Below, piece after piece: positions 24,838 to 26,340 of a DNA stretch of 64,000 nt (position 1 is the stretch's first letter; every line of letters begins with the position of its first letter). The position numbers were made by a program, and so were the translations under genes. The notes beneath the pieces are model-generated. The model was given only the letters and a program-made list of their open reading frames with translations, made no database searches and was not told the DNA's origin. The stretch comes from Escherichia coli (GTDB taxonomy: Bacteria > Pseudomonadota > Gammaproteobacteria > Enterobacterales > Enterobacteriaceae), in assembly GCF_022846255.1 (NCBI RefSeq), contig NZ_AP025682.1; one strand, given 5' to 3'.

Positions 24838-24878
24838 TTTTAATAACTGGCTCAAAGCTGAAAGCTTTCCGGAACCCC

Positions 24879-24889
24879 CAGCCTAGCTG
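24879..24889. repeat. IS4 target-site duplication, left copy (CAGCCTAGCTG)
   Basis: Identical 11-mer abuts both IS4 termini. Confidence 0.9.
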
Positions 24890-26315
24890 TAATGCCAGTC
24901 AGTTAAGCAACTGACTGGCTCTTTTTCGGGGCTGTGGGGTATTTCCAGGGCCTCTCCTTTACCACTCTCGGGAAGGCCCTTTCCCTTCTTGTCGGTAATT
25001 TCACAAGTTGTCCCATACTTGCAAGATCGCGCATCAGCTCCGGTATACGTCCCGGTGAAGCGCCCTGCAATGTCATCAGCATTCTCATCACCATTCCACA
25101 TGATTCTGAGAAACTCAGTTGATTCGGCCAGTAACCTTTCAGATGTTCCGCCATTTTAATCATCTGATATCTCACCAGATTATAAGCCAGTAAGACACCC
25201 CACAGCTCTTGCTCCACAAGCTCCGGTTTTTTACTTCTCAGCGTCAGCCTGCTCAGTTGCATCGTCTGTTTTATCTCCCTGTATCCCAGTTCGATTTCCC
25301 AGCGATGACTGTACAGATCCGCCATTTCTCCTCCGGGGAAGCGCATGGCGTCCGTCATCGACGTCAGCAGATGGCAGACTTTTCCTTTGCGCGTCACGGT
25401 CAGCAGGCGGGCTGTCACTTCATTTCCCAGTCCCGGCCACTTTTTTCGTGCCTGCGGGCTGGTTTTCAGCTTCACCAGATGATCGCCTTTACCCAGTTTT
25501 CTGATCTCTTCATATTGCGCTCCCTTTCTGAGAGGTATCATCCAGTGGCGGTGTTCTCCCGCCAGGCTCCAGGCATTTAACAGTCCCAGTGAGTAATAAC
25601 CTTTATCCATTAACGTCAGAGTGTTATCGCCGGTTTGTTCTATAAGTTGCTCAGCAAGCTCATTTTCGCTGTTCTTCATCGTGCCGAAGGCTGCAGCCGT
25701 CAGCAGATGGCTGGTCAGTTCCATCTGGCAGACCATTTTGACCTGCGGGTAGAGCGCCGGGTTCCCGGCATGTGTCTGGCGGGGGAAGGCTGCATCGTTC
25801 TCTGGTGTATCCGGTGTGCGCCAGAACACACCATCGATGGCCAGCAGGGTCAGGCCGCACCAGTGCGGATGCGGCGTGGCGTTATGCCAGAGCTGCGCTG
25901 TTTTCGTGAACACGCGGCGGACAGCCTCACTTCCCAGGCGCTGGCGGGCCTGAATAACGGCACTGGGGGCAACGAAGGGGCGATTGCCCGGCAGCATGAT
26001 GTCCAGGCGATTCACAATCTGGTGAAGAGGTTCTTTACGCTCAAGCGCCATGCCAACAATACACCAGACCATCATTTCGAGGGGAAGACGGCGCTTGCGT
26101 AGCGTTACAGTACCTGATTCGGCAAGGCAACGAGAGATGAGTTCGGGGTCGAGGTAATCCCCCAGAGAAGTCAGTGGGTTACGCAGAGAATCGTAACGGG
26201 ATACCAGATCAAGAGCCTGTCCAATGTGCATAAAAAAATCCGGAAACAAGTGAGCGTTTCCGGATTCTTACACAGCCACTGGATCGGTCAACTGATCCTT
26301 AACTGATCGGCATTA
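24890..26315 (-). mobile_element. IS4 insertion sequence, complete (1426 bp)
   Basis: 18-bp terminal inverted repeats TAATGCCAGTCAGTTAAG (24890-24907) and TAATGCCGATCAGTTAAG (reverse complement of 26298-26315), 16/18 identical; 11-bp flanking direct repeat; single long transposase ORF. Confidence 0.95.
24903..26231 (-). CDS. IS4 transposase
   Basis: 442-aa ORF starting [34 protein letters not shown]…, recognised as the IS4 transposase; start trimmed from the 448-aa track ORF. Confidence 0.93.
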
Positions 26316-26326
26316 CAGCCTAGCTG
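26316..26326. repeat. IS4 target-site duplication, right copy (CAGCCTAGCTG)
   Basis: Identical to 24879-24889. Confidence 0.9.
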
Positions 26327-26340
26327 GGGGTTTTCTGTGC

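Follow-up and report, generated by a model that had tools for sequence, protein, structure and literature searches.

Nesting of insertion sequences (ISs) within one another is common. The target consensus of IS4 is reportedly AAA-N20-TTT, as Mayaux et al. are said to have proposed in 1984, and IS231A, by what Hallet et al. reportedly described in 1994, prefers GGG-N5-CCC flanked by A/T tracts and finds hot spots in the ends of Tn4430. A sub-terminal hairpin is established as a necessity for IS608 and ISDra2, not directly for IS200. Insertion at the axis of a palindrome is known in several IS families, including the IS4-family element ISRm22 (PMC1525189), and the target specificity and target conservation of IS231 have been discussed as well (PMC2266710). 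In IS200, the inverted repeat of the left end (nt 12–34) has been described as a bidirectional rho-independent terminator, with transcription of tnpA starting near nt 40 of the element (PMC4513863). The literature that we surveyed, to which the older IS4 papers did not belong, yielded nothing direct on IS4 residing in IS200 or on targeting of terminators by IS4.

The locus considered here lies in a 64,000-nt stretch of an Escherichia coli chromosome (hereafter the window), in which rne, a DUF1778/GNAT toxin–antitoxin pair, flgL and flgK follow each other in this order. The best match of the window in the collection searched, a set that does not include the window's own strain, is E2348/69 (99.3%). 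The toxin–antitoxin pair (23346–24175, between rne and flgL) consists of a TacA-like DUF1778 antitoxin and a TacT-like GNAT toxin, and occurs also in E2348/69 and some environmental strains. A 65-bp repeat of the REP type (GCCGGATGCGGCG...), ordinary in appearance, is found at 32716–32780 and 53885–53949 with 86% identity. Between the GNAT gene and flgL, an IS200 of the IS200C type (24195–26342, minus strand) is split by a copy of IS4. We consider it highly probable that the IS200 was the first to arrive, in the T-tract of the terminator that follows flgL, and that IS4 then entered the terminator hairpin at the left end of this IS200, a target of the kind it prefers.

The limits of the IS200 were set by comparison with an E. 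coli site that lacks IS200 (L005) and by an alignment of four copies from elsewhere. Once IS4 and one copy of the repeat flanking it are subtracted, the element measures 711 bp. The IS-free site reads ...CTCATGCAAAAAAATGCCCG... and contains an uninterrupted A/T run of 7 nt, which IS200 entered without target duplication, the exact point being ambiguous by 2 nt. The element has no terminal inverted repeats; it thus shows the length (approximately 707–711 bp) and the lack of both repeats and duplication expected of IS200. The portion on one side of IS4, comprising the right end, the body and the inner part of the left end, occupies 24195–24889 (minus strand), as delimited by the same comparisons and by self-BLAST of the reconstructed element. 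The only open reading frame is tnpA (24304–24762, minus strand), which according to the ORF list, its translation and Pfam encodes an intact Y1/HUH transposase of 152 aa with the HIH motif; the protein has the expected size of about 150 aa and covers the full Y1_Tnp model (E=1.9e-37). The 5'UTR of tnpA with the STnc490 region (art200 locus) was recognized at 24772–24895 (minus strand) by the Rfam model RF01405 with 120.5 bits (gathering score, 56); the initial six positions of this match extend into IS4. The tnpA gene, IS4 and the STnc490/art200 region are all intact. At the right end, the sub-terminal hairpin CCTCCGGC-ata-GCCGGAGG (24204–24222), which the earlier note had pointed out, is real, intact and internal to the element; it folds as single-stranded DNA at -10.0 kcal/mol (z -5.1), and a terminator scan found it terminator-like on both strands.

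Beyond the other end lies the intrinsic terminator of flgL (26348–26376, minus strand, from the terminator scan), which is part of neither IS and whose T-tract is the location of the IS200. The data suggest that T-tracts of terminators are preferred by IS200 for insertion. As regards the outer surroundings, an arrangement of the IS200 left-end tip next to an A-run and then a terminator-like hairpin of the adjacent gene was seen in the window (26343–26385) and in the E. coli sequences L001, L002, L004, L006 and L008.

The IS4 copy (24890–26315, minus strand) was delimited by its ends and by comparison with IS4 of K-12. It is complete, 16 of 18 positions agree between its 18-bp terminal inverted repeats, and it differs from the K-12 element at 5 of 1,426 nt (99.65% nucleotide identity; 99.6% to K-12 strains). 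Its single transposase ORF, insG (24903–26231, minus strand; ORF list and Pfam), reads towards tnpA of IS200 and encodes an intact protein of 442 aa with the domains Nterm_IS4 (E=7.6e-33) and DDE_Tnp_1 (E=1.1e-31). At the promoter-distal end of IS4 (24894–24919), a hairpin with an 11-bp stem precedes a tail rich in T (plus strand) and, judging from this layout, could halt transcription that enters IS4 antisense to insG. The earlier note had described an intact IS4 between 11-bp direct repeats, and this description is accurate: the element spans exactly 1,426 bp and CAGCCTAGCTG abuts both of its ends (24879–24889 and 26316–26326). The 11-mer has just these two occurrences in the 64-kb window, and a random match of 11 nt at that spot would have a chance of about 4^-11. 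Duplications at other IS4 copies are 11, 12 or 13 bp long. The note took the repeats for a target duplication, and rightly so, as intact IS200 left ends are identical to the empty site that it predicted.

Deletion of IS4 and one repeat in silico restores ...GGAACCCCCAGCCTAGCTGGGGGTTTTC... with the perfect palindrome AACCCCCAGC-cta-GCTGGGGGTT, corresponding to nt 11–33 of IS200 by our placement versus nt 12–34 in the published one (PMC4513863); read in the orientation of IS200, the restored left end is GTGCACAGAA-AACCCCCAGC-tag-GCTGGGGGTT. As single-stranded DNA, this segment forms a stem of 10 bp closed by a loop of 3 nt, with a folding energy of -11.7 kcal/mol, compared to -5.4 kcal/mol for shuffled sequences, none of 200 of which folded as well. 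The palindrome anticipated by the earlier note is thus borne out and does belong to IS200 ends elsewhere: an uninterrupted 136-nt left end containing the hairpin is present in 2,323 of the 5,426 complete E. coli genomes (at least 80% coverage of the 136-nt probe). In the window, the inner arm CCCCCAGC, the loop CTA and the duplicated GCTG are found at 24875–24889, a segment that includes the first copy of the duplication, and the second copy (26316–26326), the outer arm GCTGGGGG (26323–26330) and the left-end tip ...TTTTCTGTGCAC (tip at 26342) lie on the other side of IS4, at 26316–26342. The two halves fold at only -2.2 and -2.7 kcal/mol, values equally reached by shuffled sequence. The claim that IS4 splits the left-end hairpin of IS200 is hence upheld, the palindrome being the published terminator repeat and its local folding being gone. 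IS4 transposed into the dyad of this hairpin with an 11-bp staggered cut. The terminator role of the hairpin is taken from PMC4513863; in a further sequence (L141), the intact left-end hairpin was missed by our simple terminator scan, probably because the stem runs into the T-run.

Whether such a palindrome is a usual target of IS4 had been left as a question by the earlier note, and the flanks of other IS4 copies answer it in the affirmative. A scan of metagenomes for IS4-type ends provided 120 stretches with 109 unique outward flanks, for which random positions on the same contigs served as the control. A closing stem of at least three Watson–Crick pairs in the last 10–14 nt of the flank is shared by 66% of them, versus 8.6% of the control, and one of at least four pairs by 46% versus 2.4%; an upstream A-run of at least 4 nt precedes 59% of the flanks versus 8% of the control. 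The flank consensus has A at positions -21 to -16, is rich in C from -14 to -9, continues with an AT-leaning loop and has G at -4, -3 and -1; on the sequence evidence, this is a predicted terminator-like hairpin bounded by A/T tracts, with IS4 at its apex. Specific cases from complete genomes include a terminator in a ter island, ACCCCGGC-aat-GCCGGGG-T8, which carries IS4 in its apex with the duplication CGGCAATGCCG, and, next to rrf, a gene for 5S rRNA, a terminator hairpin that holds IS4 with a 13-bp duplication. Among the other empty sites that were reconstructed, 8 of 12 fold about the duplication at -8.6 to -13.9 kcal/mol, and the K-12 IS4 site and three more fold weakly and have kept just the A...T flanks. 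The K-12 site is barely palindromic and fits AAA-N20-TTT; the site in IS200 reads AA-N19-TTTT. With its GC-rich palindrome between an A-tract and a T-tract, the IS200 hairpin is typical of the targets of IS4; a hairpin is for IS4 a preference, not a requirement.

As for the opposite end of the element, IS4 in the right-end hairpin of IS200C, searched for by its inner junction, was found in no genome, and partial matches were rejected as belonging to other terminators. A separate observation concerns E. coli 14EC033 (2481–2720 of the retrieved sequence, L140), where a 212-bp promoter-proximal fragment of IS4 abuts AATAAATATACCTCCGGTATAGCCG, a sequence that resembles part of an IS200-type right end, namely its tip and a half hairpin. 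This junction occurs in 778 of the 5,426 E. coli genomes and in four metagenomic sequences (L043, L085, L086, L115), and it may stem from an old, later truncated insertion of IS4 into the right-end hairpin of an IS200. In four other metagenomic sequences (L019, L025, L030, L090), the flanks of IS4 do not match, there is no duplication and each side bears a different half hairpin, which suggests rearrangements between IS4 copies.

The insertion in the window has counterparts at other loci. With a 160-nt probe spanning the junction, the arrangement of the window was fully matched in 320 of the 5,426 complete E. coli genomes and the arrangement with IS4 inverted in six; these genome counts do not equal counts of events, as a single copy at the gspK'/glcA locus has probably been inherited by most of the 320. 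Sixteen examples were then retrieved and represent at least eight distinct loci, all with IS4 at the same nucleotide and with the same 11-bp duplication. Five loci have IS4 in the same orientation: the flgL locus of the window, which serves as the reference; a site at an IS66 remnant and Rpn (L001, L003); hisIE/wzzB (L002); hypT (L004, L133, L136); and gspK'/glcA, arranged as in CFT073 and with a truncated IS200 (L006, L131, L132, L134, L135). The orientation is opposite at sugE/ecnB (L008), at fadL/mlaA (L138) and in the etsC region of large plasmids (L137, L139). A scan of species-representative genomes for the junction pattern found nothing. As an additional observation, two metagenomic sequences (L027, L056) contain a relative of IS4 (approx. 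90% identity) adjoining a relative of IS200 (approx. 87% identity), and their junction, which reads ...GAAAACCCCCAGCTAGGCTG up to the insertion point and TAATGCC beyond it, is at the same position in a diverged pair of elements.

The expectation that related genomes would hold the IS200 free of IS4 held at one locus and failed at another. Both states exist at hisIE/wzzB, where 27 genomes have the IS200 but no IS4; at the flgL site, an IS200 without IS4 was found neither in the 5,426 complete E. coli genomes nor in 100,044 species-representative genomes, which is why we infer the order of insertion at flgL from wzzB. The alleles of the two elements were compared across loci as well: relative to the window, the copy at hypT (L004) has an IS4 with no difference in 1,426 nt in a host IS200 about 2% apart, and the copy at wzzB (L002) has six differences in IS4 and two in IS200. 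The IS200-only state at wzzB, the mismatch of the alleles and the presence of both orientations point to repeated insertion in place. The left-end hairpin of IS200 is a recurrent hot spot of IS4, not a one-off.

In the course of events that we favour, an IS200C-type IS200 would have entered the flgL terminator at its T-tract, and IS4 would then have entered this IS200 via ordinary DDE cut-and-paste. IS4-type transposases would choose lookalikes of intrinsic terminators, i.e. a GC-rich inverted repeat between an A-tract and a T-tract, and cut the strands 11–13 bp apart. Since these staggered cuts would be symmetric about the dyad, the duplicated segment would comprise the loop together with the upper stem. 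Such a site would be the left-end hairpin of IS200 (nt 11–33), with IS4 entering the loop in either orientation and reproducibly producing an 11-bp duplication.

Other explanations have to be weighed against this one. If IS4 inserted more or less randomly and the palindrome were irrelevant, non-palindromic sites such as the one in K-12 would come as no surprise, yet the identical insertion point at eight independent loci and the strong enrichment of closing stems and A-tracts over same-contig controls make mere coincidence hardly credible. Very unlikely, too, is a mobile composite in which TnpA of IS200 moves the whole 2.1-kb unit and spreads a single junction. It would account for the identity of junction and duplication at the five loci that share one orientation, as well as for the absence of a solitary IS200 from the window's site in the 5,426 genomes, but it is contradicted by the three further loci with IS4 inverted at the same position, by the IS200-only wzzB locus and by the destruction of the local left-end hairpin. 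Moreover, the two elements do not co-diverge (none of 1,426 nt versus about 2% for L004; six versus two differences for L002), and the allele comparison across loci gave no sign of a composite moving as a unit.

A somewhat less remote, though still improbable, scenario has IS4 entering IS200 once and then reaching further copies of IS200 through homologous recombination or through gene conversion instead of repeated transposition. Identical junctions are what it predicts, and it is compatible with one IS4 allele sitting in different IS200 alleles because no allele difference lies closer than roughly 100 nt to the junction. On the left-end side of IS4, however, it would have just 27 bp of homologous IS200 sequence to work with, and it cannot yield the three opposite-orientation loci; the preference of IS4 for the apex of hairpins at sites outside IS200 also makes it unnecessary. 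We thus retain repeated transposition of IS4 into a preferred target as the best account.

What the insertion means for the IS200 copy can be reasoned from the sequence. Since 1,437 bp now separate the two hairpin arms, local folding of the left end is no longer possible. Because the hairpin can no longer form there, the copy is probably inactive in cis by analogy with IS608 and ISDra2, and its immobilization, as proposed in the earlier note, is plausible. Its TnpA could still act on other copies of IS200. The terminator shielding tnpA from outside transcription would have been lost, and, relative to the reported start of tnpA, everything before about -24 would now be IS4 DNA. On the insG strand, the terminator scan found no T-run behind the hairpin at the IS4 end; as insG is directed at tnpA, read-through from insG into tnpA is possible.

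More generally, and only tentatively, IS4-group transposases may be regarded as integrators into terminator apices, with the dyad of GC-rich hairpins between A and T tracts as their main target, and the end hairpins of IS200 would be among the most recurrent single targets in E. coli (at least eight loci for the left end; 778 genomes for the half hairpin resembling the right end). If true, one IS repeatedly disables copies of another and strips them of their transcriptional insulation. One can expect to find IS4-type elements at the apices of intrinsic terminators, and there they may alter termination and read-through of neighbouring genes. The IS200 left-end hairpin is a recurrent trap for IS4 and provides a natural set of IS200 copies with split left ends suited for testing the need for the hairpin in IS200 transposition and in the insulation of tnpA. 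Neither of these two points overturns the present understanding.

Both elements (at least 99% identity) and this kind of targeting are already known, and no new annotation category is needed. The IS4 copy corresponds to IS4 of K-12 (insG; IS4 family, subgroup IS4) in its 1,426 bp, the same 18-bp ends and a duplication within 11–13 bp, and differs only in its location inside another IS; the K-12 target itself is barely palindromic. Likewise, the host element is like IS200 (IS200C) of Salmonella and E. coli in having 711 bp, a Y1 transposase, STnc490/art200 and hairpins at both ends, the left one as reconstructed; it departs from a normal IS200 in that the left-end hairpin of the window copy is split by IS4. 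With IS231A, a member of the same family, IS4 at this site shares an 11–12 bp duplication, a symmetric GC-rich core with A/T-rich flanks and a target in the end of a transposon; host, element and core sequence are different, and the core here is a true terminator hairpin. Finally, IS1397, ISKpn1, ISPpu9/10, ISPsy8 and ISRm22 likewise insert into extragenic palindromes at the axis of symmetry or close to it; these elements target REP/BIME sequences, whereas the targets of IS4 are terminator-like hairpins with A/T tracts, one of them carried by another IS.
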